NCBI GenBank assembly: GCA_021513695.1
Contig: CP084166.1
Coordinates: 608,001-672,000, forward strand
Length of the DNA: 64,000 nucleotides
From: Candidatus Heimdallarchaeum aukensis
Lineage (GTDB): Archaea > Asgardarchaeota > Heimdallarchaeia > Heimdallarchaeales > Heimdallarchaeaceae
Direction of reading: 5' to 3'
Shown here: positions 4,381-30,600 of the stretch, piece after piece
Numbering within the stretch: the stretch's first letter is position 1
Layout of the letters: each line of letters starts with the position of its first letter
The notes under the pieces: model-generated
What the model saw: only the letters and a program-made list of their open reading frames with translations
The model's database searches: none
What the model was told of the DNA's origin: nothing
Translations under genes and position numbers: made by a program

Positions 4381-7275
4381 ATGACCAATACGGGTGATTT
4401 AAAAGTGAAAAAAAAGAAACTTGAAGAGCCTGAGGAAGTAAAAGAAGAAGTTTATTGGCATGCGTTAAAAAAAGAAGAAGTCTTTAAGCGCTTGAATACT
4501 TCTGAAAATGGACTTAGCTCTGAAGAAGTCTCAAAAAGACACGAAATATACGGTTTAAACAAGATTGTAATTAAAGAACGTTTTAAAATTCTAAAAATGA
4601 TTATTGAACAATTTCAAGATTTCCTTGTACTCTTACTAGTTGTAGCTGGCACCATAAGTTTAGGTGTAGGTATTTCATATTCTTCTCCTGGAAATATTTC
4701 TACAGAGATCTATGATGCTATTGCCATTTTTGCAATAGTATTACTTAATGCTAGTATAGGATTTGTTCAAGATTACAAGTCTAATCAAGCTTTAGAAAAA
4801 CTAAAAGAGTATTTCGAGCAAGATGTGGTTACTATAAGGAACGGAAAAGAGTTCATTGTTCCTTCTTCAGATCTTGTTCCTGGAGATATAATTGTAATAG
4901 AGGCAGGAGACAAAATCCCAGCAGATTGTAGAATTTTACAATTAAACAATTTAAAAATAGATGAAGCCCCCCTTACTGGAGAATCAAAATCTATAACCAA
5001 GAGCCTAGATCTTGTAGACAAAGATGCAAGAATACACGATAGAAAAAATATGGTTTTTATGGGTACGACTTGTGTTTATGGAAGAGCTAAACTTGTAGTA
5101 GTAAAAACTGGAATGGAAACAGAGATGGGTGAGATCGCCAAACTTACACAAGTTAAAACAGAGATGACTCCTTTACAGAAATCTCTTGATAGGTTTGGTA
5201 AAAGTTTAGGTGCGATAATTCTAGCTTTATCTGCTGTTATTATGATTGTTGAAATTATTTCTGAGATTCATTTTTATGGTTCAGAGAAAACAATCTTCGA
5301 GATTATATTTGAGAGCTTTGAAACCGCTATTGCTTTAGCTATTTCTGCTGTTCCTGAAGGTTTGGCCGCAGCGATAGTTATTACCTTAGCAATAGGAGTT
5401 TCACGTATGGCTAAAAAACGTACAATAGTTTCTAGATTACCAGCGGTTGAAACTTTAGGAAGCGTTAACTACATTTGCTCTGATAAAACAGGAACATTAA
5501 CCAGAAATGAGATGACTGTTAAAGAGATATGGACACCAGATGACAAATATATTGAAGTGGAAGGAAGCGGATATCTAAAAGAAGGAAGATTTATGCAAGA
5601 AGATAAAGTCTTCGATCCTTCAAAATCACCATCGCTAATGAAAGTGTTAGAAATTTCTTATCATTGCAACAATTCTTCTTTGATAAGAAACGGTAATTCT
5701 ATCCAAGTCAGAGGTGACCCTACCGAAGCTGCTCTTCTAGTTGTTGCTGAAAAAGGAGGATTGACTGAAGCTGATAAAAAAGAGAGAATTCATGAACTAT
5801 TTTTTGACAGTGACAGAAAAAGAATGACTACAATCCACAAAGATGGCGAAAAGAATATTGCACTCATGAAAGGTTCTCCACCCATTGTTTTACAAAGATG
5901 TAAATATATTTTAATTAATGGTAAAGTTGAACCTTTAACCGCAGAAATACAAAAGTCTATAGAAGAAGCTAACGTTAACATGTCATCTAAAGCTCTTCGA
6001 GTTTTGGCAATGGCTTACCGCGAGGTTCCTGATGACTTTGACAGAGATGATTATGACTCTATAGAAGTAGATATGATTTTTGTAGGATTAACAGGAATGA
6101 TTGACCCAGCAAGACCAAACGTAAAAGAAGCTATACAAGAGTGCAAAGAAGCTGGTATAACTACAATCATGATTACTGGAGATCAAAAAGAAACTGCTGT
6201 AGCTGTAGCCAAAGAAATAGGAATACTAACTTCTGAAGATGAACTAGTTGTAAATGGAGAAGAATTAGACCTAATGACTGAAGAAGAGTTAGTAGAGAAA
6301 ATAGAGAAAATAAAAGTCTATAGTAGAATGAGTCCCAAAGATAAATACAGAGTGGTCGAGACCTTACAAAAATTAGACAATTTTGTTGCTGTAACTGGAG
6401 ATGGAGTAAATGATGCTCCTGCACTAAAGAAAGCTGATATCGGTGTTGCTATGGGAATCACTGGAACTGATGTAACTAAAGAAGTTGCAGATATGGTTAT
6501 TACAGACGATGCTTTTAACACAATAGTTGATGCAGTAGAAGAAGGAAGAAATATCTTTGCTAACATGAAGCGATTTATAAGATACACTTTAAGTAGTAAT
6601 TTTGATGAATTGTTTGCAGTGTTACTTATTACTTCTTGGTTAGGAGTTTTACCCTTTACCCCCTTACAAATTCTGTTCCTTAACTTATTAACTGATGCCT
6701 TACCAGCTTTAAGTTTATCCTTTGAACCATATGATCCAAAGTTGATGAAGAGACCTCCAAGAGGAAAACATGATTCATTCCTTCGAGAAATGTATTCTTT
6801 CGCAGTTATTTCAGGTATAGTTGCTTTCTTTGCATCTGTTTCAATGTTCTTACTAGTATATTTCCACATGGGTCCTCAAAAGTTCGGTTCAATAGACATC
6901 CCAGAGAACAAGGACCAAATAGTAGCTTATGCCCAATTTATGGCTTTCATTGTAACCCTTACATTTGAATTAGTTTTCGTGTTCATAGCTAGAAATGACA
7001 ACGATGTCAAAGTCTATGAGACTAATCCTTTCAAGAACAAGATGCTCATCTGGGCAGTTATTAGCTCTGTTGTGTTACTTGCCTTAGTAATTTTCATTCC
7101 TGTGCTTCAAAGTATTTTCACTTCGTTCGACAACTATTACTATGTTCCTGATCTGGTAGACTGGGCATGGATAGCTCTCTTCACTGTCGGATTCAATATT
7201 ATTATTGAACTCTTCAGAGAACTTATGATGACAAAGAAGATGAGTAAAATCGCTCACAAAATTGGTTTTGCCTAA
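4381..7275 (+). CDS. P-type cation-transporting ATPase, P2 (Ca2+-ATPase-like)
   Basis: 964 aa. CSDKTGTLT phosphorylation motif, TGDGVNDAPALKKADIGVAMG hinge motif, about 10 TM segments, and an N-terminal cation-ATPase-N-like region. Confidence 0.9.
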   Translation: MTNTGDLKVKKKKLEEPEEVKEEVYWHALKKEEVFKRLNTSENGLSSEEVSKRHEIYGLNKIVIKERFKILKMIIEQFQDFLVLLLVVAGTISLGVGISYSSPGNISTEIYDAIAIFAIVLLNASIGFVQDYKSNQALEKLKEYFEQDVVTIRNGKEFIVPSSDLVPGDIIVIEAGDKIPADCRILQLNNLKIDEAPLTGESKSITKSLDLVDKDARIHDRKNMVFMGTTCVYGRAKLVVVKTGMETEMGEIAKLTQVKTEMTPLQKSLDRFGKSLGAIILALSAVIMIVEIISEIHFYGSEKTIFEIIFESFETAIALAISAVPEGLAAAIVITLAIGVSRMAKKRTIVSRLPAVETLGSVNYICSDKTGTLTRNEMTVKEIWTPDDKYIEVEGSGYLKEGRFMQEDKVFDPSKSPSLMKVLEISYHCNNSSLIRNGNSIQVRGDPTEAALLVVAEKGGLTEADKKERIHELFFDSDRKRMTTIHKDGEKNIALMKGSPPIVLQRCKYILINGKVEPLTAEIQKSIEEANVNMSSKALRVLAMAYREVPDDFDRDDYDSIEVDMIFVGLTGMIDPARPNVKEAIQECKEAGITTIMITGDQKETAVAVAKEIGILTSEDELVVNGEELDLMTEEELVEKIEKIKVYSRMSPKDKYRVVETLQKLDNFVAVTGDGVNDAPALKKADIGVAMGITGTDVTKEVADMVITDDAFNTIVDAVEEGRNIFANMKRFIRYTLSSNFDELFAVLLITSWLGVLPFTPLQILFLNLLTDALPALSLSFEPYDPKLMKRPPRGKHDSFLREMYSFAVISGIVAFFASVSMFLLVYFHMGPQKFGSIDIPENKDQIVAYAQFMAFIVTLTFELVFVFIARNDNDVKVYETNPFKNKMLIWAVISSVVLLALVIFIPVLQSIFTSFDNYYYVPDLVDWAWIALFTVGFNIIIELFRELMMTKKMSKIAHKIGFA

Positions 7276-7469
7276 ATTCTTTTTTCTTTTAATTTTCTTT
7301 AATTTTCTTTAACTTTACTATCTAAAAGATCTTGAAATTCAAAATTCTGCAATTTAATTATTTGAAATGAACTGTTTAACGTTTAAATTAAATAATAAAA
7401 GGGTTTAACCGAATCTATTTATTAACTCTTATATAATAGATGATTCCTTAATTTTCAAGGTATTAAACA

Positions 7470-14017: not shown

Positions 14018-16018
14018 ATGAAAAGTTTTTTACCTAAATTTCTGCTTAATGAAATCGATCTTTATTTAGATGATTCTCAGAAGTCTATTTTTGAAGAGAA
14101 GGTTAAAAGTATTGTAAGTAATGCTTCTGACTATGATACGATTTCCAAGGACATTACTGCCTTTCTTTTGAATGAAGATTTTACTGATTTAACGACTTAT
14201 GATCAAATGCTTATTCTTGTTTCAATTCTTCTAAATTACTGGAAAAAGGATTATTCTCTTATTTTTAGCATCTATGACAAATTTCATTCTTTTGATTTAC
14301 CTCTTAGCGTTATGATTTGTTTTCTTCTATTTTTTCAAGAATCTTTTGATTTAACCACTTTTAACCTTTGGAGAGAGAAGATAGAAGAGTACATTACAAA
14401 CATTTCTGATTCTACTGAAAAAGAATTTCTTAAAACTGCTATTGAGCAATTTGCTTCTAAGCTTGAGCAAAGGCCTGAGGTTGGTTATCGTTCTATGAAT
14501 CAGCTTATTCGTTCTCTTGAGGAGAATGAGCATATTTCTTATCGATATCCTTTTGTTTTCGAGGCTTTAGAGATTGATCTTATTCAGTACTCTAACATTT
14601 TAGCTGATGAAGTTTTTTCTGAAATCTGGATTGAGTCCGCTAGAAGAAGAGCTGAAGTTATGGAAAACTATGGCATGTTAGTTCAAGTTAACAGCCTTCT
14701 TGCTAGTATTTTAGTTAAAGAGTATCATCTTGAAAAAGCTAAAGAGAAAATTGAGGAGGGGTTAGAGATTGCTAAGAGGATCAATTCTCCTATTTTAGCT
14801 GCTCAAATTGAGTTGAACAAGGCCTTGTTATTGAAGATGCAAGGTAAGTTGGACGAAGCTTTGAAGTTATATGAAAAAATTGCTAAAGTTAAGAATCTTC
14901 CTCAAACTTTTCAATTGGATATTTACAGTAAAATAGGTGAAATTTATCTCAACAAGGACGAGATAGTTAAAGCTGAAGAATACTACCTTAAAGCTCACGA
15001 GATTAATAAGAAACTTAATTTTATCAATCCTCTTGTTGAAATAGTTATAGGTTACATTAACCTGATTTTAGAGAAAGATAAGGGGGAAGCTTTAGATGAG
15101 GGGTTGAAGATTGCTGAAGAACAGTTTGATTTTTCTTCTATTCCTTACTACTACTTCTACAAAGGTATTTATGAGCAACAAAGGGTTAACTTATCCTTAT
15201 CTATTGAATACCTTGAACAAGCTTTGAACTCTTTTGAGCACCAAAAGAACTTTGAGGGTATTGTTTATACTAACGGTGCATTGGCAGAGTCTTATCTTCA
15301 GATTTACAAGCTTCTTCACGATAACAAATATTCTTCTCGGTTCCTCTATTATATTGACAATCTTATTGAAATACTAAAGGAGTTAAACAATCCTTTGTAT
15401 GTTGAAGCAATAAAGACTAAAGCAGGTTACTATTTAGATAAAGGTTTAATTAAAAATGCTGAAGATCTGTTTATTGATGGAATAGAATTTGCTAGGACAC
15501 GAGGATTAAAAGAGGAAGAAATATATCTTAAGGAATCGCTTACTAACAAGAAGAATTTAACAAAAATAACTTTAGAAGGTACTCAAATACTCTTTAGAAA
15601 AATAAGGATGTTCAGCTTTGGTAAGCATAAAACTGTTCCCACCAAATTATACTTACTTTTAGCCATTAATGAAGCTGGAATTCCTTTAGTTTCTCACTCT
15701 TTTACTGAAGAAGAGATGGTAGATGATCTTTTAGTTTCAGGGTTAATTTCAGCTATAATTAATTTCTCTTCTGAAGTTCTAGGAAAAGGAGGAGAAACCT
15801 TACGATCAATAAATCATGAGGGCAAAGCTGTTATAGTAGAGAAAAAGGACAATGTGATGGGTATCTTAGTTGCTGAAGATGAGAATTTCGAGATGAGACT
15901 GGAACTTAGACAGTTTTTGCAGAAAGCGCTTGATAAGTTAGTTTCTGGACTTCCTATTGTCAGAGAAAACGACAGTGAGATTTTTTCTATTATAGAAGAA
16001 GTTTTTGAGAGAAAATAA
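14018..16018 (+). CDS. TPR protein with C-terminal roadblock/longin-like domain
   Basis: N-terminal and central TPR-like helical repeats. The C-terminal ~100 aa (LYLLLAINEAGIPLVSHSF...LVSGLISAIINFSSEVLG...AVIVEKKDNVMGILVAED) has a beta-alpha-beta-beta pattern and aligns by eye with the C-termini of the 25494-27419 and 33434-36667 proteins. Confidence 0.6.
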   Translation: MKSFLPKFLLNEIDLYLDDSQKSIFEEKVKSIVSNASDYDTISKDITAFLLNEDFTDLTTYDQMLILVSILLNYWKKDYSLIFSIYDKFHSFDLPLSVMICFLLFFQESFDLTTFNLWREKIEEYITNISDSTEKEFLKTAIEQFASKLEQRPEVGYRSMNQLIRSLEENEHISYRYPFVFEALEIDLIQYSNILADEVFSEIWIESARRRAEVMENYGMLVQVNSLLASILVKEYHLEKAKEKIEEGLEIAKRINSPILAAQIELNKALLLKMQGKLDEALKLYEKIAKVKNLPQTFQLDIYSKIGEIYLNKDEIVKAEEYYLKAHEINKKLNFINPLVEIVIGYINLILEKDKGEALDEGLKIAEEQFDFSSIPYYYFYKGIYEQQRVNLSLSIEYLEQALNSFEHQKNFEGIVYTNGALAESYLQIYKLLHDNKYSSRFLYYIDNLIEILKELNNPLYVEAIKTKAGYYLDKGLIKNAEDLFIDGIEFARTRGLKEEEIYLKESLTNKKNLTKITLEGTQILFRKIRMFSFGKHKTVPTKLYLLLAINEAGIPLVSHSFTEEEMVDDLLVSGLISAIINFSSEVLGKGGETLRSINHEGKAVIVEKKDNVMGILVAEDENFEMRLELRQFLQKALDKLVSGLPIVRENDSEIFSIIEEVFERK

Positions 16019-19493: not shown

Positions 19494-20171
19494 ATGAACA
19501 AACAATATGAAGATGTATTACATTTTAATCAGAAGCAAATATTGGTTCTAAATGAAAAACAAACAGAATTAATTCGTGACCCCCAATACTCTCCTATAAC
19601 AAGAGTTCTTCGTTCTGGTCCTTTAACAGTTCAAGAAATAACTGAAGAATATAACAAACTAATACTCATGAATTGCCAAATTGATAACGAAAATAATGGT
19701 AATTTTGAAAAATTAAAAAGATCAGAGAAATCTATCTATAGATATCTTCGAGATCTTGAGGAATCAGGATTAGTTACTGTAGCTGGTCAAAGAGTCATTT
19801 TTGGTCAAACAGCTACACAAAAGCTATGGTCGAGAACAGCAAAAATTTTTGTTTTTAAAACACAAACTGTTAATTTTTGGAAAACAGAAGAAGGTTTGAA
19901 ATACGCAGAGAAAATTAATGATTTACTGCATATTATTTTTGAAGATTATGACAAAGAGTGTAAATACACCCAGGAGTTATTAATTCGCTTAAATAAAATC
20001 GCTGAAGAATCAATTTTAAATATTTTTACAAAAAATCCCAAGAAAATTGATGAAATAATTGGGGGGTGTGATTTCGAAGATCTAAATCACATTCTTAAAG
20101 AACTTCATCTTTTAATTTTATTACTAAAAAAGGATGAAGTTGAAGCTTTACTACAAAGTTGTTTTGACTAA
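19494..20171 (+). CDS. putative winged-helix DNA-binding protein
   Basis: SIYRYLRDLEESGLVTV is wHTH recognition-helix/wing-like. Paralogous at the N-terminus to the 52247-53026 protein (DPxxxxIxxxLxxGxL...RYLxxLxxxGxV). Confidence 0.4.
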   Translation: MNKQYEDVLHFNQKQILVLNEKQTELIRDPQYSPITRVLRSGPLTVQEITEEYNKLILMNCQIDNENNGNFEKLKRSEKSIYRYLRDLEESGLVTVAGQRVIFGQTATQKLWSRTAKIFVFKTQTVNFWKTEEGLKYAEKINDLLHIIFEDYDKECKYTQELLIRLNKIAEESILNIFTKNPKKIDEIIGGCDFEDLNHILKELHLLILLLKKDEVEALLQSCFD

Positions 20172-20182
20172 TTTGAATTTAT

Positions 20183-22399
20183 TTACCCTAATACTAGTTC
20201 TTTTTCTGGTTTTGACTTCTGTTTAGTCTTTTTTGTATCTATTGTTTTTTTCTCTATTTCTGTATCTTTTTTCTTAACTATATCATCTTTCTGTTGATCT
20301 AGGGATGTTTCTACTTTCTCTTTCTTTTCTTTAATATACTTAGCTTCTTCTACACTTACTTCTTCTGTCTCTTTTGTATCATTTTGTTGTTTTTTCTCTT
20401 TGATTTCTTCTTTAGAAGGAACAACTTTTTTTGAAATCCTCTCTTTTCTAGTATCTTTTGCTTCTTGTCTCGTTTCTTTTTTTACCTTTGTCATTATTTT
20501 AGGTTCTGACTTTTGTTCTTTCTCTTTTTCTAGTTCTTCAACTATTTTAATTTGCATTTCTTTTTTGACTCTTTCATATAAATTGACTGACCAAGGTAAA
20601 TTCTCTTGAATTGAAATATTAGAGAGAGAACGAAGAATCTCTATAACAAATTTTTTCTGTGTTTCCTTGTTACTTGAAAGCTTGTTATATGCATTTGACA
20701 AAATAGAATAAACTTTTTCTTCCTCAGTGTAAAGAAACAACATATTTCTGATTACTGTTGAAAGATCTCTATTTTTCTCAAATTGGAAAATGTTCTTGCA
20801 TATTATATCTTCAAATACTTTTTTAAGGGTAGAATCATTTTTTTCTACTGTTTTTAGATCAAAACAAGTTTGAATACTTTCAATAGTTAAGTTTTGTAAA
20901 GAGTTAGAAATGAAACCCTTTTTTTGATTTAATGTTGTGATTACTCCATTTAGGAAGTTTGTGCTCAAGGTTTCTGCGCAAATAGATAACAGTTCATTTT
21001 TTTGATTAGTAAAAACTAATTCACTCTTTAGATTTTGTAAAATGACTACAACTTCTTCTACATCAAAGTCTCCTGAAATCTTGTTTTTTATTGATTCCTC
21101 TGAAAAGAATACTGAATAATAATAGAATTTTTCACTTAACTCTGATAACGTAGGATCTTTACTTTTATTCATATCTTTTATATTCATTGAAAGTGCAACT
21201 AACAACCCTCGAATAATTTTTTCAAAATCTCTTTTTTCTTCTTCTTTTGAAACTTGGAGTTTAAATAACATTATAATTAGTTTATTGATTTGTAAAAGAA
21301 CTAGTTCTTTTTCTTTTAATGTTAAATCTGATAACTCGGTATCTATTGCAATTACTGATTTATCTAATAAAAAGTTTAGATTTTCTCTTGTCTTTGAATT
21401 AAGTTTGCTTTCTTTACCTAAAGCATGAAAATAAGCAAAAGTGCTAATAGCAAATAAATTAATTCTCTCTTCTAGTCTATTTAAAAAAACTTCAAAGTTT
21501 CTAACTATTTTATCTAATTTTTCTTCAGGTTTATCTTGCTGCTCTAAACCTATTTTAAAGCTATTTAGGTAGTCTATTGAACATTTTGAAGAAAAGATGT
21601 ACAATATTGTTGGATAAAAAGTTAGATATTCAAGGAGCTCTTTCTTAATCAAATTAATGTCAAAGAAATAGTTAGATGCTCCCATTAAAAGTGCAAAATC
21701 AGTAAGAAATTGTGCTTTCTCAATAGGTAAAAATTTTAACAAATCGTTTTCTAAATACTCAAATCGAATGAGTTTTCTTCCGCAAGAAGGGCAAGACTCT
21801 TCATTAACTATTTTTTGTCCACATATTGAGCATAAAACAGTCTTTTTTCTTATTTGTATTCCACATTGATTACAATAATTGCTGTCAGGGTGATTAGAAG
21901 AATCACAGTTTAAACATTTAACAACCTTAAAAGAAGGTTTTTCTTTTCTTTCAAAGTATTCTTCTTTTTGTTCTTGTTCGATACTTGTCTCTTTCTGGTG
22001 AATGTCAAATTTTAAACCACAATATTTACAAAAACGAGCGTTTGGAGGATTAACAGTTTGACAGTTTGAACAAATCAAAATGTTTGGTTCACTTTTTTTC
22101 TCTGTAAATCTTGCACCACATTGGGTACAAAATTTTGCATCAATTTTTTGCATAGATCTACAAAAAGGACAAGCTTTTGTCTGTGAGCTACTTTTATTTT
22201 TCTTGTTTCTTTCATTAGCAAAGTTGTATCCACATTTAGAACAAAACAGAGCTTCATTTCGAACATATTTCTGACAAACAGGACATTGTTTAAGAAGTGT
22301 ATATTCAGTAGGAGTATCGATTTTATTTCCACAGTGAGTACAATAAGAAACTTCTTTTTTATTCAGAAGACCACATCTATTGCACATCTTTTGTATCAT
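20183..22399 (-). CDS. multi-zinc-ribbon protein (six CxxC...CxxC ribbons) with helical middle domain and K/E-rich C-terminal tail
   Basis: N-terminal 200 aa: CNRC..CTHC, CPVC..CSKC, CPFC..CTQC, CSNC..CKYC, CLNC..CNQC, CSIC..CPSC. The last ~110 aa are low-complexity and K/E-rich. Confidence 0.6.
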   Translation of the reverse strand: MIQKMCNRCGLLNKKEVSYCTHCGNKIDTPTEYTLLKQCPVCQKYVRNEALFCSKCGYNFANERNKKNKSSSQTKACPFCRSMQKIDAKFCTQCGARFTEKKSEPNILICSNCQTVNPPNARFCKYCGLKFDIHQKETSIEQEQKEEYFERKEKPSFKVVKCLNCDSSNHPDSNYCNQCGIQIRKKTVLCSICGQKIVNEESCPSCGRKLIRFEYLENDLLKFLPIEKAQFLTDFALLMGASNYFFDINLIKKELLEYLTFYPTILYIFSSKCSIDYLNSFKIGLEQQDKPEEKLDKIVRNFEVFLNRLEERINLFAISTFAYFHALGKESKLNSKTRENLNFLLDKSVIAIDTELSDLTLKEKELVLLQINKLIIMLFKLQVSKEEEKRDFEKIIRGLLVALSMNIKDMNKSKDPTLSELSEKFYYYSVFFSEESIKNKISGDFDVEEVVVILQNLKSELVFTNQKNELLSICAETLSTNFLNGVITTLNQKKGFISNSLQNLTIESIQTCFDLKTVEKNDSTLKKVFEDIICKNIFQFEKNRDLSTVIRNMLFLYTEEEKVYSILSNAYNKLSSNKETQKKFVIEILRSLSNISIQENLPWSVNLYERVKKEMQIKIVEELEKEKEQKSEPKIMTKVKKETRQEAKDTRKERISKKVVPSKEEIKEKKQQNDTKETEEVSVEEAKYIKEKKEKVETSLDQQKDDIVKKKDTEIEKKTIDTKKTKQKSKPEKELVLG

Positions 22400-22497
22400 A
22401 GAACCCCAGCGCTAACTTCTATTTAGAAAGTACCATACAAGTATATATAACTAGTTTTTTAAGATTGGATTTAGAATTAGATTTATCACAATTTTTG

Positions 22498-22539
22498 TTG
22501 TACAATCACTTGTACAAACTATTAATCACGATGTACAAA
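22498..22539. promoter_or_regulatory. three TGTACAA sites (two perfect TTGTACAA palindromes at 22498-22505 and 22510-22517; a third at 22532-22538) in the divergent intergenic region
   Basis: Read directly. Includes direct repeat AATCAC(T/G)(T/A)TGTACAAA x2. Lies between the minus-strand start at 22399 and the plus-strand start at 22577. Confidence 0.3.
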
Positions 22540-22576
22540 GTCTTTATATAAATAGAATGAAATTTCAAAGTAATAT

Positions 22577-24934
22577 ATGAAAAAACGAACGAACATTAAA
22601 AAAATAAATTTCATATTGTTCTTAATTTTTGTTCTTTTTGCAAGTTTTGCAATTGAACATGTTACAATAAAAGCTTCAGATAGCACCAACATAGGAAACC
22701 AGAAACATTTCGTTGATGACAACGCTGAGATCTTAATTATTTCAGATAATGATTTTGTTAAATATGGTTTTCCAGGGGATGGTTCTGTAGATAATCCATA
22801 TATTATCAGCAACCTAGATTTAAATACATCGAAAATGTTTGGTATATTTATTTCTAATGTAAGTTCATATTTTGTAATAGAAAACTGTTTTATTAGATCT
22901 TCTTATTACGGAATATCAGTTAGTGGTCTTGAAGAAAACAGAGCTACTATAAGAAACAATACCTTTTACAAAAGTATTGTAGCTGTTGAAATTAGCCATT
23001 CTCCAGGAATAACAATAATTAACAATAATTTCACTGAAAACAGAGATTATGGGATTTTTATTGAATATTCACCTGATTCCGTTTTGAACTCAAATTACTT
23101 TTTCAAGAATGGCGTGGGTTATTCCGGAAATGGTCTAATTATTAAAGAATCTGAAAATTCAACAATTACCAATAACTCTTTTGTTAGGGATGGTTTAGCT
23201 ATAGAGCCCTCAAATTTTGACATTAAATTGAGCTTATTTAATAATACAGTTAATAATAAACTAATTGGCTACTTCACTAAACAGAACAATATAGTAGTAG
23301 ATCAGTCTATTTATGGTCAAATACTTATCATTGAATGCTCAAATGTTTTTATTTCAAATCAAACGATTTCAGAAACTAATGTTGCTATTTCTGTTTATAA
23401 CTCAAATAGTATACTTATTTCAAATAATACTCTTATGAGCAATGATAAAGGGATTTTCTTATTTCAAACCTATGACTTTGCAATAGAGAGAAACTTTCTA
23501 GAAAATAATTCATTGAATGGATTAGAAATCAACGATTGTACTAAATTCAACATCGTAGATAATGAGATAATCAACAACAGGAAAGGGATTGAGTTATTTA
23601 TTGTCGATGGTTACTCAATTTCTAACATTAATAAGAACACAATTAAGGAGAATTTAGAAGAAGGACTTTCATTAAACACTGTAAATAATTTAAACATAAG
23701 CGAGAATTTCATATACAAAAATTTAGTAGGAATATATGCTTATTATTCTTCTAATGTCTATATAGTTGCTAATTCATTTGAAGTTAATTACCTTTATGCT
23801 ATAACTTTAATGGAAAGTGTAAACAACTTCTATATTTATTATAATCTCTTTGCAACCAATAATCTTGAAAACAAAAACGAATCCCAGTGTTTAGATAATG
23901 GAGTAAATAATCTATGGTACAATCCAGATACAGAAAAAGGAAATTATTGGACAGATCTTAATGACCAAAAGGTTTACTCAATAGGAGGTTCTGCAGGAAG
24001 TATTGATGCATATCCTATGGACCCATTTATAGTCGATTATCCTCCTTTATTTAATTGGCAACTTTACCTGATTCTTCCACTTACTTTAACAACCCTTTTA
24101 TCTGCAGGAGCTTATTTCTTGATCAAAAAAAGAGAAAGAAGAAATTCCAATCTTTCTGATTACAAGAAAGAGCTGAAAAAAGAGAAAGAGTGGGCTAGTG
24201 CTATTACAGAGAAAAAAGATAAAGTAGGTTCTCCAATTAGTAATCTAAACAAACAGATTAGAAAACATTTGGTAAAGAACTTTTCTAAATGGTTTATAGT
24301 AGGTTCAATTTCAGTACTTGTTATTAGCTCTGGATTTTTAGCTTACAAACTTTCGGTCTCTCCTGATAATACTAACCAAAACGGTGCAATGGTAAAATAT
24401 GCCCAAGCTCTTCAACAATCTATTCCTGAAGCTGTCTATATAGAGATTATAGGTAATGCTACATCGGCAATACATGAGAGTTTAATGGATGCACATATTT
24501 ATCGTATAAGCCCCTATCCAGATTTGACTTGGGAAGTTACAGCTAATATTCTCAAATTTGATGATGAAGGAAGAGCTTACCTTGAAGAAATTTCTTTCAC
24601 TCTCGACAGTTATGTAATTGATGAAATCGGACAAAATCTCTTCGAATCTCTCAACAACACCGTGATTTTAGGACATTACGGAGAAAAACCCTACAACGAT
24701 GAAGATACTTACAACATAAATATTAAATGGGGTTTAAGATTTTTCTTGGAAAATACTACAATAATTGAGTTGATTGTACTAGAGAATGGTCTTGTAGTAT
24801 ATGCAAAAGGCTACTGGGTAACTTTTTCTAATTATTCAACAAACATGATCGGAGCTTTAATTATTGGACCAGAATCTGCTTTTGACAATACTATTCGAAT
24901 TCTAAGAGAGATTTTTGAGGAAAATATAAATTAG
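22577..24934 (+). CDS. surface protein: signal/anchor, right-handed parallel beta-helix repeats, two TM helices, C-terminal domain
   Basis: N-terminal hydrophobic leader. Repeated ~22-aa units with NN(T/S)F, ISN and GI(F/S)I motifs typical of PbH1 beta-helix repeats. TM helices LYLILPLTLTTLLSAGAYFLI and FSKWFIVGSISVLVISSGFLAY. Confidence 0.6.
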   Translation: MKKRTNIKKINFILFLIFVLFASFAIEHVTIKASDSTNIGNQKHFVDDNAEILIISDNDFVKYGFPGDGSVDNPYIISNLDLNTSKMFGIFISNVSSYFVIENCFIRSSYYGISVSGLEENRATIRNNTFYKSIVAVEISHSPGITIINNNFTENRDYGIFIEYSPDSVLNSNYFFKNGVGYSGNGLIIKESENSTITNNSFVRDGLAIEPSNFDIKLSLFNNTVNNKLIGYFTKQNNIVVDQSIYGQILIIECSNVFISNQTISETNVAISVYNSNSILISNNTLMSNDKGIFLFQTYDFAIERNFLENNSLNGLEINDCTKFNIVDNEIINNRKGIELFIVDGYSISNINKNTIKENLEEGLSLNTVNNLNISENFIYKNLVGIYAYYSSNVYIVANSFEVNYLYAITLMESVNNFYIYYNLFATNNLENKNESQCLDNGVNNLWYNPDTEKGNYWTDLNDQKVYSIGGSAGSIDAYPMDPFIVDYPPLFNWQLYLILPLTLTTLLSAGAYFLIKKRERRNSNLSDYKKELKKEKEWASAITEKKDKVGSPISNLNKQIRKHLVKNFSKWFIVGSISVLVISSGFLAYKLSVSPDNTNQNGAMVKYAQALQQSIPEAVYIEIIGNATSAIHESLMDAHIYRISPYPDLTWEVTANILKFDDEGRAYLEEISFTLDSYVIDEIGQNLFESLNNTVILGHYGEKPYNDEDTYNINIKWGLRFFLENTTIIELIVLENGLVVYAKGYWVTFSNYSTNMIGALIIGPESAFDNTIRILREIFEENIN

Positions 24935-24937
24935 AAG

Positions 24938-25423
24938 GTGCGTATAATGAATATTGTGGCAAAAGAGAAACAAGATATCATCGCTGAACTTAACGGAACA
25001 GCGCTACGTATTTTCCTTTTTCTTTTAAAAAACAATGAAATAGGAATACGAGACGCTCAAAGAAAATTAGGCCTTAAGAGTGCTAGCCATGTACAGTACC
25101 ATCTACAAAGATTTGAGCATTTAGGTATAGTGGAAAAGATGCCTAATAGCAGATATTGTCTTACAGAAAAATATTCTGAACTTCGAAGCATAAAACTAGG
25201 TCTTTTAACTGAAATATACATCTACAAAGGTGTTATAATTCCTTCTATTGGTTTTTTTTCTGGTGCTCTATTTACAACATTAATTATTTCTTTAATTTTT
25301 TACTTTCAAGTAAACAAGCTTTCAGGATTTCTAATTAGTATAATCGGAGTCTTTGCTACAGCAGTATATTTTCTAATCCAAGCTATTCAAATACTTAAAA
25401 ACTTTAGAGAGAATGAAAAATAA
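24938..25423 (+). CDS. membrane-anchored winged-helix transcriptional regulator
   Basis: N-terminal wHTH (LRIFLFLLKNNEIGIRDAQRKLGLKSASHVQYHLQRFEHLGIVEK) followed by two hydrophobic helices. Starts 4 nt after the beta-helix protein stop. Confidence 0.5.
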   Translation: MRIMNIVAKEKQDIIAELNGTALRIFLFLLKNNEIGIRDAQRKLGLKSASHVQYHLQRFEHLGIVEKMPNSRYCLTEKYSELRSIKLGLLTEIYIYKGVIIPSIGFFSGALFTTLIISLIFYFQVNKLSGFLISIIGVFATAVYFLIQAIQILKNFRENEK

Positions 25424-25493: not shown

Positions 25494-27419
25494 TTAATTA
25501 ATATATGTTAGAATGAAAGAATCTTGTATAAGATCTTCTATTTTCTTTTCTTCTATTTTGTCAAAAAACTTACCTGTTTTTGGAATGGAAGTTAGTTTAT
25601 GCCATAATTCCTCGAATTTTCCAATGTTATTAACAAAGTTATCTATCTTTTTATTGGCAGTGAAAGAAGAGCCTTTGAACACATAACAAAAGATTATTCC
25701 TTCCTTGTTTTTGAACGTCAAAAAGTAGTCATGATATTCTACTTGCTTGATTGAACCTTCTGTTGCTAAAACCTCTTTTAATATGTTATTTAAAGCAGAA
25801 AGGAATCCTGAAAATAGAATACTGTCATATTTCTCCTCACTAAAGTTATAACTGTAAAGTGGTATTCCATGTTCATTTAGAATAAGCAACATAACTGGAG
25901 TGTCTTTTTCTATTACTTCGAGTTCGTAGCTAACCCTTTGTATCATCTGCGAAACTAAAGTGTCAACTTGTGTTTTTTCTATTCTTTTCTTTATACTCAC
26001 ATCAGAATTAAGAATTGCTTTCCATTTATTATGTTCTCTTACAATTGAATCATATTCTAAACTTATTTTTTGAGCTAAATTGTCTAATCCTTGAGAAAAA
26101 GCTATCTCCTGCGCTTTTAATAAATCCTCTTGAGCTTCATCAAGATTTAGTTGAATTAGATTAATCTTTCCTTTTAACCAGTAAGCTTCTGCTAAGAGAG
26201 ACCTAGATATTTGCATTTCTGCAATTTTTAATAGCTGAATGTTTATATCCTTTAGTTCATCTATAATTTCGCTTTCATTAAAAATAGTAAGCTCTTCTAG
26301 CAATATTTCAGTAAGGTTTAACATCGCATGAATATTTATCTCATTGTAAATTTCATTCGTTCTAATAATAGAATGAAGAAGAGAGATAGCTTTCGCTTGT
26401 GAAACAAATCTTTTTCGCTCTTTTAATACACTTGCTTCTGTTAGTTTAGCATAAAAACTCAAAAACTTGTTTTTTTCCTTTCTAGATAATTTTTTTAATT
26501 CTTTCAAGTATTCCTGAGCTTTCGATATTTGCCCTAGTAAAATGTGTAACTTAGTCAAATAATAGGTGGATTCAGCTATAATATAGTTAAATTTAACTAA
26601 TTTTGCATAATTTATACTTTTATCGAAAAAATCTAAAGCTAGATTAAACTCTCCTTTACTGAAATAAACGATGCCTATATTATTGAAAACTTGTGAAATT
26701 CCAAAAATATTTTCTTTTTCTTGATAGTTAATTAAAGCATCGTTATATAGTTCAACCGCTTTATTTAGATTTCCTTTTAATCTATAAATCTCACCTATAG
26801 AAATTAAAGTATTGTTAATTATTTGCTTCGAGTTTAAAAATTCACCATAAACAAGACACTCTTCAAAACAAGCAAGGCTTTGATTTAGATTTCCTTTTTG
26901 GGCATTTATTTTTCCTTCTCTATATTTTAAAAAAGCATAAATTTTGGTCTCATTCTTCTCTTTAACTAATTGTAAAGATTTTTTTACTAAATTCAGTGCT
27001 CGTGGTAGATCTTTATAGATAACCAGTAAAGCTTGGCAGAGATTGAAAATGGCATTAACTTCATTTTTATCTTTCTTAATTACCTTTGATTTTGTTTTTT
27101 TGAAGTGTAATAAAATTTCTTCACTTTTTTTGTTTTGTGATAAAAGGAGAGAAAAAACCTCTATCAAATAATAGTAAACATAGAAATCATTAGCCATAAG
27201 TTCTTTCTCATTTTCAAGGTAACTTAAAAGTTGAAGGCCAAATACTTTGCAATCCTCTACTTTACCAAACTCATAAGCTGTTTCAACTTTGTGATTTAAT
27301 AAACTTCTTTTTTCAATTGAAGGTTGTTTTCTCTCTTCTTCATGGTTATTTATTTGGGTAATAATTTCAGAATATTTGGTTGAATCTAGAATTTTTTCGT
27401 TTTCTATGAAATCTATCAC
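25494..27419 (-). CDS. TPR protein with C-terminal roadblock/longin-like domain (paralogue of 14018-16018)
   Basis: Multiple TPR units (NIGIVYFSKGEFNLALDFFDKSI etc.). C-terminus MLLILNEHGIPLYSYNF...LFSGFLSALNNILKEVL...GIIFCYVFKG has the same pattern as the other two copies. Confidence 0.6.
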   Translation of the reverse strand: MIDFIENEKILDSTKYSEIITQINNHEEERKQPSIEKRSLLNHKVETAYEFGKVEDCKVFGLQLLSYLENEKELMANDFYVYYYLIEVFSLLLSQNKKSEEILLHFKKTKSKVIKKDKNEVNAIFNLCQALLVIYKDLPRALNLVKKSLQLVKEKNETKIYAFLKYREGKINAQKGNLNQSLACFEECLVYGEFLNSKQIINNTLISIGEIYRLKGNLNKAVELYNDALINYQEKENIFGISQVFNNIGIVYFSKGEFNLALDFFDKSINYAKLVKFNYIIAESTYYLTKLHILLGQISKAQEYLKELKKLSRKEKNKFLSFYAKLTEASVLKERKRFVSQAKAISLLHSIIRTNEIYNEINIHAMLNLTEILLEELTIFNESEIIDELKDINIQLLKIAEMQISRSLLAEAYWLKGKINLIQLNLDEAQEDLLKAQEIAFSQGLDNLAQKISLEYDSIVREHNKWKAILNSDVSIKKRIEKTQVDTLVSQMIQRVSYELEVIEKDTPVMLLILNEHGIPLYSYNFSEEKYDSILFSGFLSALNNILKEVLATEGSIKQVEYHDYFLTFKNKEGIIFCYVFKGSSFTANKKIDNFVNNIGKFEELWHKLTSIPKTGKFFDKIEEKKIEDLIQDSFILTYIN

Positions 27420-27679: not shown

Positions 27680-30600
27680 ATGAAAAAGAAGACAATAACT
27701 TTGATCTTTATACTGTTAATAATGATTCAAGTATCTTCTTTATTTATAGAAACAGAAGCTTCAAATTACATATATACTCAACTTAAGTGGAGAAAAATAT
27801 CAAGCTACAATTATGGAGAAGCTTCTTTCTTTGACTATGATAAAGACGGAAAATTAGATGTTTTTTTTAAAACAGCAGAAGGCATAGAAATTTACAATCA
27901 TAAAGGAAATCTATTAAAGAAAATTCATGGTTATTTCCAATATACCCCCACAATTACAGACCTAGAAAAAGATGGAGATTTAGAGTTTATTACTCAAAAC
28001 TACTATGGAATAGAAATATACGATTCTACCGGACAATTAAAAGAACAGAACTTAACTTTATATAGTGCCTACGCGAGAATTGTGGTTGCAGACATTAACA
28101 ATGACGGGATACAAGAAATAATTTATCATTCCACAGGTGATATAATATGCTTCAACAATCAATTAGAAGAAATTTGGAGCTATAAATTTGAAAATCCAGA
28201 CTATTATGGAAGTATTTATGATCTCGTAGTTAATTCAGATGCAGATTCTGAAAAAGAAATTGTAGTTTATTATGACAACTCGATTTATCTATTTAATACA
28301 GATGGTGAAAAAAAATGGTCAAAATCCTTACCTTCTGAAGGAATTGTCGCTTATGATTTTAATGATGATGGTATAGATGAAATAATTGGAACCAAATCAT
28401 CAGATTACACAATTTACTCTTTAAACAGTCAAGATGGTTCTGAATTGTGGATTAATGAAATGGCTGTAAACTTAAACCCTTTGCCTATTGACCTTGATCA
28501 AGATGGAATTGTAGAATTAATAGCTCTTTCTACTGATAATGACAAGTCTGAATCTTATATTAATTATATCAATGGAAAAACAGGAGAAGTAGAAGAACAG
28601 GTAACTGTAGATCAAAGATTCTTTACTAATTCATATTACGAATTCTTTCCTGAAACTCCAGCTGTAGGAGATTTTGATGGTAATGGGGTGTTGGACCTTA
28701 TCTTTCTTGCTTTTTCATATGCTTATAGTGTTGCTACACTGATTTATTCTGCAGATGGGTATAGAATAGCAGAATTTGACGAGGGTTCACTAACAACTCC
28801 AACAATTGTTGACCTGGATGGTAATGGAAGAACAGAAATAATGATACGTGATTATTCAGGAATATTCTGCTATGAGGTTACTGGATCAACTTCTGGAAAA
28901 AATATCTGGTATAAAGAAAGAGGAAATATAGCTAATACAATGGTAGTAGATACAGATGGAGACTTGCTAGATGATATAAGCGAAGAATTTTATGGTTCAG
29001 ATAAAGGAAAAGAAGATACTGACGGTGATACCCTTTTAGACGGAATAGAGATAATTGGTTCTGGTTCTTCACCTATAAAACAAGACACTGATGGAGATGG
29101 TTTAACAGATGATGTTGAATATGAATTAGGTTTCAACCCAAGATTAAATGACTTAGATTTGGATTATGATGATGATAGTTTAACCAATTATGATGAAGTA
29201 TTTGTTTATTCAACAAATCCTATGTCTAATGATACAGATAACGATTTACTACTTGATAATGAAGAAATTAATACTTATGGAACGTCTCCAACAAACAACG
29301 ACACAGATGCAGATGGTGTTATTGATGGAGAAGAAGTACATACTTACGGAACATCACCATTAGATAATGATTCAGATGACGATGGAATGGAAGACGGATA
29401 TGAAGTCTTATACAACTTAGATCCTCTTGTAAATGATAGTTATGGAGATATTGACTCAGATGGTTTGTTAAATATTGAAGAGTTTACATACAATTCAAAC
29501 AGTTCAAATGTAGACACAGATAATGACACAATTTCAGATGGTGATGAAGTTCATACTTATGGAACGTCTCCAACAAACAATGATTCTGATGGAGATAATC
29601 TCACAGATAATGAAGAAATTTATACTTATGGAACGTCTCCAACAAACAACGACACAGACGCAGATATTATGTGGGATGGTTGGGAGATTGAATATGGATT
29701 TAATCCCTTAATCGACGATGGAGATGAAGATTTAGATTCTGACGGTCTTTCCAATGCTGAAGAATTTATTTATTCAACAGAGCCTAACAATACTGACTCA
29801 GATTCTGACCAACTCCTTGATGGAGAAGAAGTACATACTTATGGAACAGACCCTGCTAAAATTGATAGTGACGAGGATGAGCTTACTGATTATGAAGAAG
29901 TTATAGTTTATACAACAAATCCTGTGTCTAACGATACTGATAATGACTTAATGGGTGATTATTATGAGGTTAATCATGGTTTAAACCCCCTTGTAAACGA
30001 TACTTTAGGCGATCTTGACAATGATACTCTAACAAATTATGAAGAATTTTTACTTGGTACTTTACCTAATAACAATGATACTGATGGAGATGGAATGAGT
30101 GATGGTTTTGAGTATCAATATGGACTAATTTTAACTGACAATGATTCTTCATTGGACAAGGATAAGGATGGTTTATCTAACCTTGACGAATTTTTACATA
30201 ATACCAACCCTCTCTCTAATGATACTGATGGAGATGGAATGTTTGATGGTTTTGAAGTGCAATATAACCTTAACCCAAATTTAAATGATTCTGCAGGAGA
30301 CCCTGATGCTGATGGAATATCAAATATTGATGAAATGAAATATGGTTCATCACCAATTAGCTCTGATACAGACAGTGACCGTCTAACCGATCCTGAAGAG
30401 ATATTCATCTATCACTCTAATCCTGCAATAAAAGATACAGATGGAGATGGTTTAGAAGATGGAGAAGAAGTACTTGATTTTGGTACAAGCCCAACTAACG
30501 AGGATACAGACGGGGACACTCTTAGTGACTATGTAGAGATTTATGTTTTCCTCACTGACCCAACAGACCCTGATACAGATAACGATGGAATGAATGATGG

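Follow-up and report, generated by a model that had tools for sequence, protein, structure and literature searches.

A membrane-anchored winged helix-turn-helix protein, its co-encoded ecto-domain partner and a three-box operator: a putative autoregulated module conserved in Heimdallarchaeia

How a surface protein and a membrane-held transcription factor come to share one operon, and what such a pair might control, is the question raised by a small locus of Candidatus Heimdallarchaeum aukensis, a member of the Heimdallarchaeia, the closest archaeal relatives of eukaryotes. The locus occupies positions 20183–25423 of a 64,000-nucleotide stretch (contig CP084166.1, positions 608,001 to 672,000), which is referred to here as the window, has a G+C content of about 30% and supplies the coordinates given below. 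An initial interpretation from the letters alone, called here the sequence-only reading, described a minus-strand gene for a zinc-ribbon protein diverging from a plus-strand operon that encodes a beta-helix surface protein and a winged helix-turn-helix (wHTH) protein anchored by two transmembrane (TM) helices (wHTH-2TM). All three open reading frames (ORFs) proved real and as described, and their comparison across related genomes points, on balance, to an autoregulated transmembrane regulator module with a co-encoded ecto-domain partner, conserved in Heimdallarchaeia. To our knowledge, no transcription factor–operator pair has been defined experimentally in Asgard archaea, and the comparative data provide a precise candidate pair, namely a 158-residue protein and a 40-bp three-box site.

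The evidence that carries this reading comes from distant relatives. Among GTDB species representatives, 15 Heimdallarchaeota loci encode orthologues of the wHTH protein at 41–50% identity, and 13 of these include upstream DNA. In every one of the 13 (regulator identity 41–48%), a partner gene lies directly upstream of the wHTH gene on the same strand, at a gap of 3–35 nt, and its product, a single-pass membrane protein with a predicted ecto-domain in 13/13 cases, matches residues ~557–785 of the window's beta-helix protein at 30–48% identity, with profile scores of E 1e-87 to 1e-119. No zinc-ribbon, tetratricopeptide repeat (TPR) or FG-GAP genes were found at the distant pair loci, and the other neighbours vary, comprising a conserved NUDIX-like ORF and ORFs that are NMNAT-, aminopeptidase- or DUF1028-like by sequence resemblance only. 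Because the pair alone persists while the other neighbours differ, the unit is a pair and not a trio, and on this comparison it consists of the partner (a TM helix and a C-terminal ecto-domain, termed here C-dom), the wHTH-2TM regulator and an operator.

What, then, is the partner? The first gene of the operon (22577–24934, plus strand) encodes 785 residues in the order signal or anchor, PbH1/NosD-like beta-helix ecto-domain, TM helix, basic cytoplasmic loop, TM helix and C-dom. The right-handed beta-helix region (residues ~60–480, 22754–24016) matches the Pfam families Beta_helix (E 2.5e-31) and NosD (E 5.6e-30) well above their cut-offs; identity as a NosD orthologue was rejected, as TIGR04247 reaches 65 bits against a cut-off of 300 and generic beta-helix repeats alone match. 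The sequence-only reading had given this protein a beta-helix and two TM helices, of which the beta-helix stands, whereas topology prediction returns three hydrophobic segments: an N-terminal signal or anchor (residues 13–31) and TM helices at residues 498–516 and 572–590, which enclose a K/R-rich cytoplasmic loop of residues 517–571 (24068–24346). The C-dom that follows (residues 591–785, about 195 residues, 24347–24931), delimited by orthologue alignment, had been overlooked. In ten loci the partner stands alone as a protein of 232–241 residues, in which a short basic N-terminus precedes a single TM helix and the ecto-domain, and the conserved part of the partner is, on the alignment, its last ~230 residues, TM helix plus C-dom.

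C-dom gave no sequence match in Pfam, NCBIfam or the PDB, and a PDB profile match to a designed leucine-rich-repeat protein was dismissed as spurious, being summed from one short motif. It defines a new ecto-domain family of about 195 residues. Several N-x-S/T sequons are conserved in its alignment (GNAT, NVT, NNT and ENxT), which fits a location of C-dom outside the cell, and the TM helices carry basic residues on their cytoplasmic flank. The cytoplasmic juxtamembrane segment is itself conserved, with F20, K22 and G27 (numbering of the C-dom alignment) nearly invariant. The best explanation of these features is that the partner gene's product would expose a glycosylatable C-dom outside and keep a short basic segment in the cytoplasm.

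The beta-helix appears, by contrast with this conserved part, as a lineage-specific N-terminal fusion that is accessory to the partner. It is fused to the partner in two further loci, L011 (856 residues) and L008 (partial), as in the window, and it was not found in the recovered flanks (0.5–10 kb upstream) of nine other loci. Because the junction in L011 is homologous to that in the window, down to a GAYF motif in the TM helix, the two fusions suggest a single fusion event. In locus L017 the beta-helix gene is separate, 1.8 kb from the partner, with no boxes of the kind described below upstream of it, and nothing suggests that it belongs to the same regulon. The proposed link between a membrane-tethered factor and a beta-helix surface protein is thus upheld as a pairing and revised as to the partner, with the beta-helix shown as an add-on to a conserved putative receptor.

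The second gene of the operon (24947–25423, plus strand) encodes the 158-residue regulator. It had been placed 4 nt after the beta-helix gene, that is, from GTG 24938; this codon sits within a Shine-Dalgarno-like GGTG motif (24937–24940), and the junction reads TAG-aa-GGTG-cgtata-ATG, with the motif 6 nt before ATG 24947. Because the motif precedes this ATG and the orthologues all align from its Met, ATG 24947 is most likely the start, giving a gap of 12 nt. The short gap and the motif before the second gene support the predicted operon of beta-helix and wHTH genes. The protein comprises an ArsR/SmtB-like wHTH (residues 17–73, 24995–25165) with its recognition helix at residues 46–58 (ASHVQYHLQRFEH), a beta-rich linker of about 26 residues (74–99) between the wing and the first TM helix, a two-helix TM hairpin (residues 100–150, 25244–25396) with an external loop of at most 7 residues, and a short basic C-terminal tail. 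The proposed membrane anchor is borne out by Kyte–Doolittle peaks of 2.06 and 2.25 over residues ~100–122 and 124–150 and by an AlphaFold2 model with helices at 100–122 and 124–157.

The wHTH gave DNA-binding ArsR/SmtB repressors as its best matches in structural comparison, and the protein is regarded as a genuine ArsR/SmtB-like wHTH on a two-helix membrane anchor, as modelled. HMMER, run in full against 1.84 billion representatives, recovered 258 clusters at E <= 1e-3, almost all with members of 140–170 residues; most alignments span the wHTH into or through both TM helices, which are conserved across the family. Among 60 relatives, the Pfam matches were LexA_DNA_bind (40), HTH_20 (34) and HTH_5/ArsR (24); the window protein alone falls just below the Pfam cut-offs, an exact-sequence look-up returned no record of it, and no NCBIfam model covers the family. 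By these searches, neither regulator nor partner belongs to a curated family. Conservation among orthologues is highest in the recognition helix (0.96; consensus ASH(A/V)QYHLQR(L/F)E); it is 0.82 in the juxtamembrane linker, 0.57 in the N-terminus and 0.50 in the second TM helix. The regulator contains one Cys and neither a CVC-like nor an alpha-5 His/Asp motif.

The promoter of the operon provides the third conserved element. The TGTACA repeats that had been reported upstream of the beta-helix gene are real and occur in three copies: box 1 (22499–22504), which is TGTTCA in most distant promoters (pairwise identity 0.85); box 2 (22511–22516), 12 bp start-to-start from box 1 and invariant (1.00); and box 3 (22532–22537), 21 bp from box 2 and CGTACA in three loci (0.94). 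Five nucleotides after box 3 lies the TATA box of the operon, TTTATATAAA (22543–22552, plus strand), whose position is fixed and whose pairwise identity is 0.85. These values come from an alignment of 13 promoters, the window and 12 other loci, which contains no gap between box 1 and the TATA box and has the consensus (TGTTCA or TGTACA)-N6-TGTACA-N15-(T/C)GTACA-AA(A/G)-N2-TTT(T)AT(T)A(T/A)AA. Mean pairwise identity is 0.58 and 0.48 in the spacers and 0.35 further upstream. The almost invariant AA(A/G) that follows box 3 probably overlaps the B recognition element (BRE). For TGTACA pairs within 4–16 nt, the expected number in the window is 0.03, and they occur there at this promoter only; in 372 kb of DNA a box pair with N5–6 spacing occurs only at promoters adjoining wHTH-family genes. 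Because the TATA box lies so close to the partner ATG, about 30–34 nt before it, the window operon is probably transcribed as a leaderless or nearly leaderless mRNA.

Most of the distant operons (L010, L012–L015 and L017–L020) have a 5' leader of ~50–60 nt with a conserved hairpin, GAAGT-loop(5–7)-ACTTC followed by GGTG or GGCGG, positioned ~15–45 nt upstream of the partner start (for example L010 9262–9290); the stem is kept and the loop length varies. L016 keeps the first arm only, and the window lineage, which looks leaderless, has no such hairpin. One of these loci, L012 (JBHLQZ010000027.1), is labelled Thorarchaeota, and its operon, promoter and flanks are nearly identical to those of the Heimdallarchaeota metagenome-assembled genomes L013 and L014; it may be mis-binned or carry a wrong taxon label.

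Which protein would read these boxes? Two divergent loci are informative in this respect. Locus L023, whose regulator shares 28% identity and whose divergent partner gene encodes a DUF4382 protein, has four boxes on the strand of the partner gene, at spacings of 12, 21 and 21 bp; an A/T-rich element lies 5 nt beyond the last of them and 57 nt ahead of the partner ATG. Locus L030, with an unrelated partner (hhalign against C-dom found no relationship, at a probability of 1%), carries TGTTCA-N5-TGAACA as well as a further TGTTCA, placed 20 nt on and next to the TATA box, giving box spacings of 11 and 20. The wHTH-2TM gene alone is shared by all box-bearing loci, these two included, which makes its product by a wide margin the strongest candidate for a factor binding the boxes; on sequence, its nearly invariant recognition helix matches an invariant operator. 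The proposal of envelope-linked control by the wHTH protein acting on the TGTACA repeats gains strong comparative support from the co-occurrence of the pair and the three boxes in every recovered orthologous promoter, with the binding itself still a prediction.

The following mechanism would be consistent with these features. In the window lineage, fusion would have added to the front of the conserved partner a signal peptide, a PbH1 beta-helix and a further TM helix, and the second gene would be translated from its own Shine-Dalgarno motif. The regulator, held at the inner face of the membrane, would bind the box array, probably as two dimers, and control the promoter of its own operon: one dimer would sit on boxes 1 and 2, which, at a distance of 12 bp, make up an inverted repeat (TGTTCA...TGTACA) in the majority of genomes, and a second unit on box 3 would touch the BRE, at a remove of two helical turns. 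With spacings of 12 and 21 bp, all sites would lie on one face of the DNA. Because no more than 7 residues of the regulator face the outside, external input would have to come through the partner, whose ecto-domain, here lengthened by the beta-helix, would report an envelope or extracellular cue, and whose TM helix and juxtamembrane segment would set the activity of the regulator through their contacts with it. Repression by occlusion of the BRE and TATA box and an activator geometry are almost equally likely, with a slight leaning to repression. For repression speak the ArsR/SmtB-type fold, a TATA box close to consensus and the probable overlap between the BRE and box 3; for activation speaks the fact that the boxes all lie upstream of the TATA box and at fixed spacing, like the boxes of the archaeal regulator ArnR.

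Comparison with characterised systems helps to place this module. ArnR and ArnR1 of Sulfolobus acidocaldarius are membrane-bound one-component activators of the archaellum promoter, with a helix-turn-helix (HTH) domain at the N-terminus, two TM helices at the C-terminus and boxes located at −43 to −84, both of which are needed for binding (PMC6396743). The window regulator resembles them in being archaeal, in its architecture, in which a cytoplasmic HTH comes first and a pair of TM helices forms the C-terminal part (for ArnR, PMC6396743), and in its short repeated boxes just upstream of the BRE and TATA box, here at about −37 to −75. In contrast, ArnR has a HAMP-like and a sensor domain between HTH and TM helices, where the 158-residue window regulator has a ~26-residue linker; ArnR has no known partner (PMC10269533, Table 1), whereas the window regulator is strictly co-encoded with one; and ArnR acts on the archaellum promoter, whereas the predicted target here is the regulator's own operon. 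The comparison is one of architecture, not of sequence.

The bacterial co-component regulators ToxR–ToxS, TcpP–TcpH, VtrA–VtrC and CadC–LysP (PMC10269533) offer a second parallel, in that a membrane-anchored wHTH protein shares an operon with a single-pass membrane partner and, while membrane-bound, binds repeats next to the core promoter, as is predicted here from the co-conserved operator. The extracytoplasmic domain of the bacterial partner controls the regulator (PMC10269533), and such control is what we infer for C-dom. There are also differences. The bacterial wHTH is of the OmpR/PhoB type with one TM helix, whereas the present one is ArsR/SmtB-like with a TM hairpin; the periplasmic domain of the bacterial regulator pairs with the partner, whereas the hairpin (loop of at most 7 residues) has no external domain, so that any coupling here must run via the membrane or the cytoplasmic juxtamembrane region; and here the partner gene comes first and the promoter is of the archaeal BRE/TATA type. 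A lipocalin-like ligand-binding fold is a further trait of partners of the ToxRS/TcpPH/VtrAC type; C-dom resembled no family at the level of sequence. The soluble ArsR/SmtB regulators (CzrA, ArsR, SmtB, CadC of pI258 and the archaeal Phr) share the wHTH fold, but the window regulator lacks the alpha-5 dimerisation helix and the metal-binding Cys/His motif, and beta strands and a C-terminal membrane hairpin replace the soluble dimer interface. For the partner, likeness to NosD/PbH1 surface proteins is confined to the N-terminal ecto-domain matching Pfam Beta_helix and NosD, an optional domain that is missing from most orthologues.

With a predicted DNA-binding domain and at least one predicted TM region, the regulator has structural features by which transmembrane transcription regulators are defined (PMC10269533), and control of transcription in the membrane-bound state is predicted for it from the co-conserved operator; the module would be of this kind in a new form, combining an ArsR-like scaffold with a hairpin anchor that has no sensor. 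The characterised tethered regulators with partners are all bacterial, and ArnR is the one archaeal entry, without a partner (PMC10269533, Table 1). A conserved archaeal regulator–partner pair would, if true, show an independent origin of the same logic on an ArsR-type scaffold and offer a candidate path by which Heimdallarchaeia could sense envelope or extracellular cues. A bolder view, held only tentatively, is that of a first archaeal co-component system, in which a sensor-less, hairpin-anchored ArsR-like regulator is switched by a cognate single-pass ecto-receptor through contacts within or beside the membrane; its exchangeable receptor modules would be C-dom, fusions with the beta-helix and, among paralogues, proteins of DUF3160 or DUF4382, and its operator would be a family-wide TGT(A/T)CA array of fixed 12/21-bp geometry adjoining the BRE and TATA box and conserved across Heimdallarchaeia.

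Several observations weigh against an autoregulated module with a sensing partner. Four wHTH-2TM paralogues (L025, L026, L027 and L029) are paired, upstream or downstream, with genes for N-terminally anchored DUF3160 proteins of 673–768 residues (Pfam E 1e-160 to 1e-175), and these four loci have no TGTWCA boxes, so that the operator of this subfamily must differ. More distant family members, among them L032–L035 and the short-linker relatives P0014, P0025, P0032 and P0046, have neither an ecto-partner nor boxes; the short-linker relatives lie on short contigs or in a housekeeping context. The arrangement of partner plus operator is specific, in the sequences compared, to one subfamily. The sign of regulation is ambiguous from sequence, the sole target identified is the operon itself, no genome-wide scan for a regulon having been made, and everything beyond conservation is inferred. 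C-dom has no recognisable fold or ligand site, which leaves a sensor role as guesswork; the domain could just as well be the product under regulation.

This last point leads to the alternative that survives best, although it is rather unlikely: the regulator would bind the boxes, and the partner would be no more than regulated surface cargo, the input coming from the membrane (lipid state or crowding) or from cytoplasmic modification such as phosphorylation. The family's pairing with unrelated surface proteins (DUF3160 at four loci, DUF4382, an uncharacterised 269-residue protein and C-dom) would be expected of cargo, as would the family members without any partner, and ArnR, which is listed without an associated protein, is phosphorylated by ArnC (PMC10269533, PMC6396743). 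Yet the C-dom partner has been kept beside the regulator in 13/13 orthologous loci, at regulator identities as low as 41–48% and in changed contexts; the conserved juxtamembrane segment of the partner, with F20, K22 and G27, is unexpected for mere cargo; and the juxtamembrane linker of the regulator is likewise highly conserved (0.82). Together these speak against a role as mere cargo.

The zinc-ribbon gene (20183–22399, minus strand) raises the question of whether a third protein is involved. Its 738-residue product contains, as had been described, six tandem zinc ribbons of the pattern C-x2-C-x9/10-C-x2-C, with 12 CxxC motifs in residues 6–206 (21782–22384), a region of about 400 residues (~210–630) predicted all-alpha, for which the AlphaFold2 model from a three-sequence alignment is poor (predicted local distance difference test score 47), and a K/E-rich low-complexity tail (residues 601–738, 20186–20599) with 41–50% K+E per 50-residue block. 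The ribbons match DZR (E 9e-23; 80.6 bits against a gathering score of 27.3), Zn_Ribbon_1 (61.6 against 25) and Zn_ribbon_3; the DZR match gives the protein a domain name, not a function. A hydrophobicity scan found no TM segment. Word-index searches with the whole protein returned homologues of 98%, 77–78% and 70% identity in Heimdallarchaeum-like contigs only, always divergent from the operon, and the helical domain alone has no homologue beyond the genus among 5.8 billion proteins; a match in Eremiobacterota was set aside, as it aligned through the zinc ribbons only. By these searches, the protein is a fast-evolving, genus-restricted cytoplasmic orphan.

On its own promoter side, the gene has a TATA-like element (22441–22450, minus strand; GTATATATAA on the plus strand) within a conserved block, CAAGTATATATAACTAGTTTTTT, identical in all four sequences that cover it. 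Between this element and the start codon lies a perfect palindrome, TTCTA-TT-TAGAA (22417–22428), which is conserved within the genus, being kept in the window, L001, L005 and L002 although the surrounding bases vary, and which may be an operator for another factor. In L002 (an ENA contig), the zinc-ribbon gene (5768–7390) is cut at 540 residues by an unrelated convergent ORF, and the beta-helix gene (5291–5599) ends after ~101 residues and runs into glycosyltransferase genes; L002 probably reflects chimeric assembly or rearrangement of this locus.

The zinc-ribbon gene and the operon had been proposed as a divergent pair forming one unit, and this part of the sequence-only reading is not upheld. 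The gene is present in close relatives only; all 13 distant loci in which pair and operator are kept lack it in their flanks (up to 10 kb), and it is dropped from the unit because only adjacency in close relatives supports the link; by this comparison it is probably outside the conserved module. That reading was to be given up if the three genes were not neighbours in related genomes and the wHTH lacked DNA-binding residues: the trio is indeed not conserved in distant loci, while the pair is kept and the recognition helix is conserved at 0.96. It is accordingly improbable that the divergent promoter region which they share couples the zinc-ribbon protein functionally to the operon, with the protein serving, for instance, as an adaptor in the cytoplasm for one and the same envelope pathway. 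The divergent order, the zinc-gene TATA box and the leader palindrome are kept in Heimdallarchaeum-like contigs (L001, L002, L005 and L007), the boxes lie only ~48 bp upstream of that TATA box, and zinc ribbons are a local theme, recurring as zinc-ribbon/RING-like fingers in the tail of a surface protein encoded at 27680–31624; all this adjacency is nevertheless seen among close relatives, where synteny is uninformative, and it is set against the absence of the gene from the 13 distant loci and of helical-domain homologues beyond the genus.

Least probable of all is that the boxes are bound by another soluble factor, such as the ArsR-like 225-residue protein encoded at 19494–20171 or a global regulator, and that the wHTH-2TM protein is a membrane scaffold or assembly factor: the link of this protein to the boxes is indirect and a second wHTH gene does lie close by in the window, but the 225-residue gene was not found in any distant box-bearing locus, whereas the wHTH-2TM gene is the sole regulator that co-occurs with the boxes everywhere, L023 and L030 included, and its product has its best-conserved segment in the recognition helix and its best structural matches among DNA-binding ArsR/SmtB repressors.

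In close relatives, the whole arrangement is preserved. The window proteins share 98–100% identity with those of a 'Candidatus Heimdallarchaeaceae' metagenome contig (L001) and about 90%, over a range of 68–95%, with those of Ca. Heimdallarchaeum endolithica PR6 (L007, CP084167.1), and the order major facilitator superfamily (MFS), acyltransferase-like, ArsR-like, zinc ribbon, beta-helix, wHTH, TPR and FG-GAP/thrombospondin-type-3 is kept in L001 and L003–L007. At identities of 70–98%, such full-arrangement synteny says little about function. Against PR6, the beta-helix protein (68%) and the zinc-ribbon protein (70%) are the least similar, whereas the wHTH-2TM regulator (90%), the ArsR-like 225-residue protein (95%) and the MFS protein (93%) have changed more slowly, and by this measure the surface beta-helix protein and the zinc-ribbon orphan are the fast-evolving genes of the region. 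Within the window, no paralogues of the wHTH, C-dom, beta-helix or zinc-protein helical domain were found, and Rfam and tRNA scans gave no matches; a scan for sigma-70 promoters and terminators showed no enrichment, with bacterial models that are not relevant to an archaeal host.

Two neighbouring genes deserve mention. The TPR (MalT-like) protein encoded at 25494–27419 (minus strand) shares a C-terminal region of ~90 residues with another at 14018–16018 (plus strand), at 30% identity over 89 residues; the 143-residue C-terminal segment that holds this region shows a weak resemblance to longin domains (Fuz_longin_1, E 0.004, below cut-off), and a similar TPR protein is found in L009. The gene at 27680–31624 encodes a 1314-residue surface protein with FG-GAP and thrombospondin-type-3 repeats, one C-terminal TM helix and a cytoplasmic tail of ~300 residues (30722–31624), whose terminal fingers match DZR (E 7e-6) and zf-RING_2 (E 7e-4), both below cut-offs, and it adjoins the TPR gene throughout the genus.

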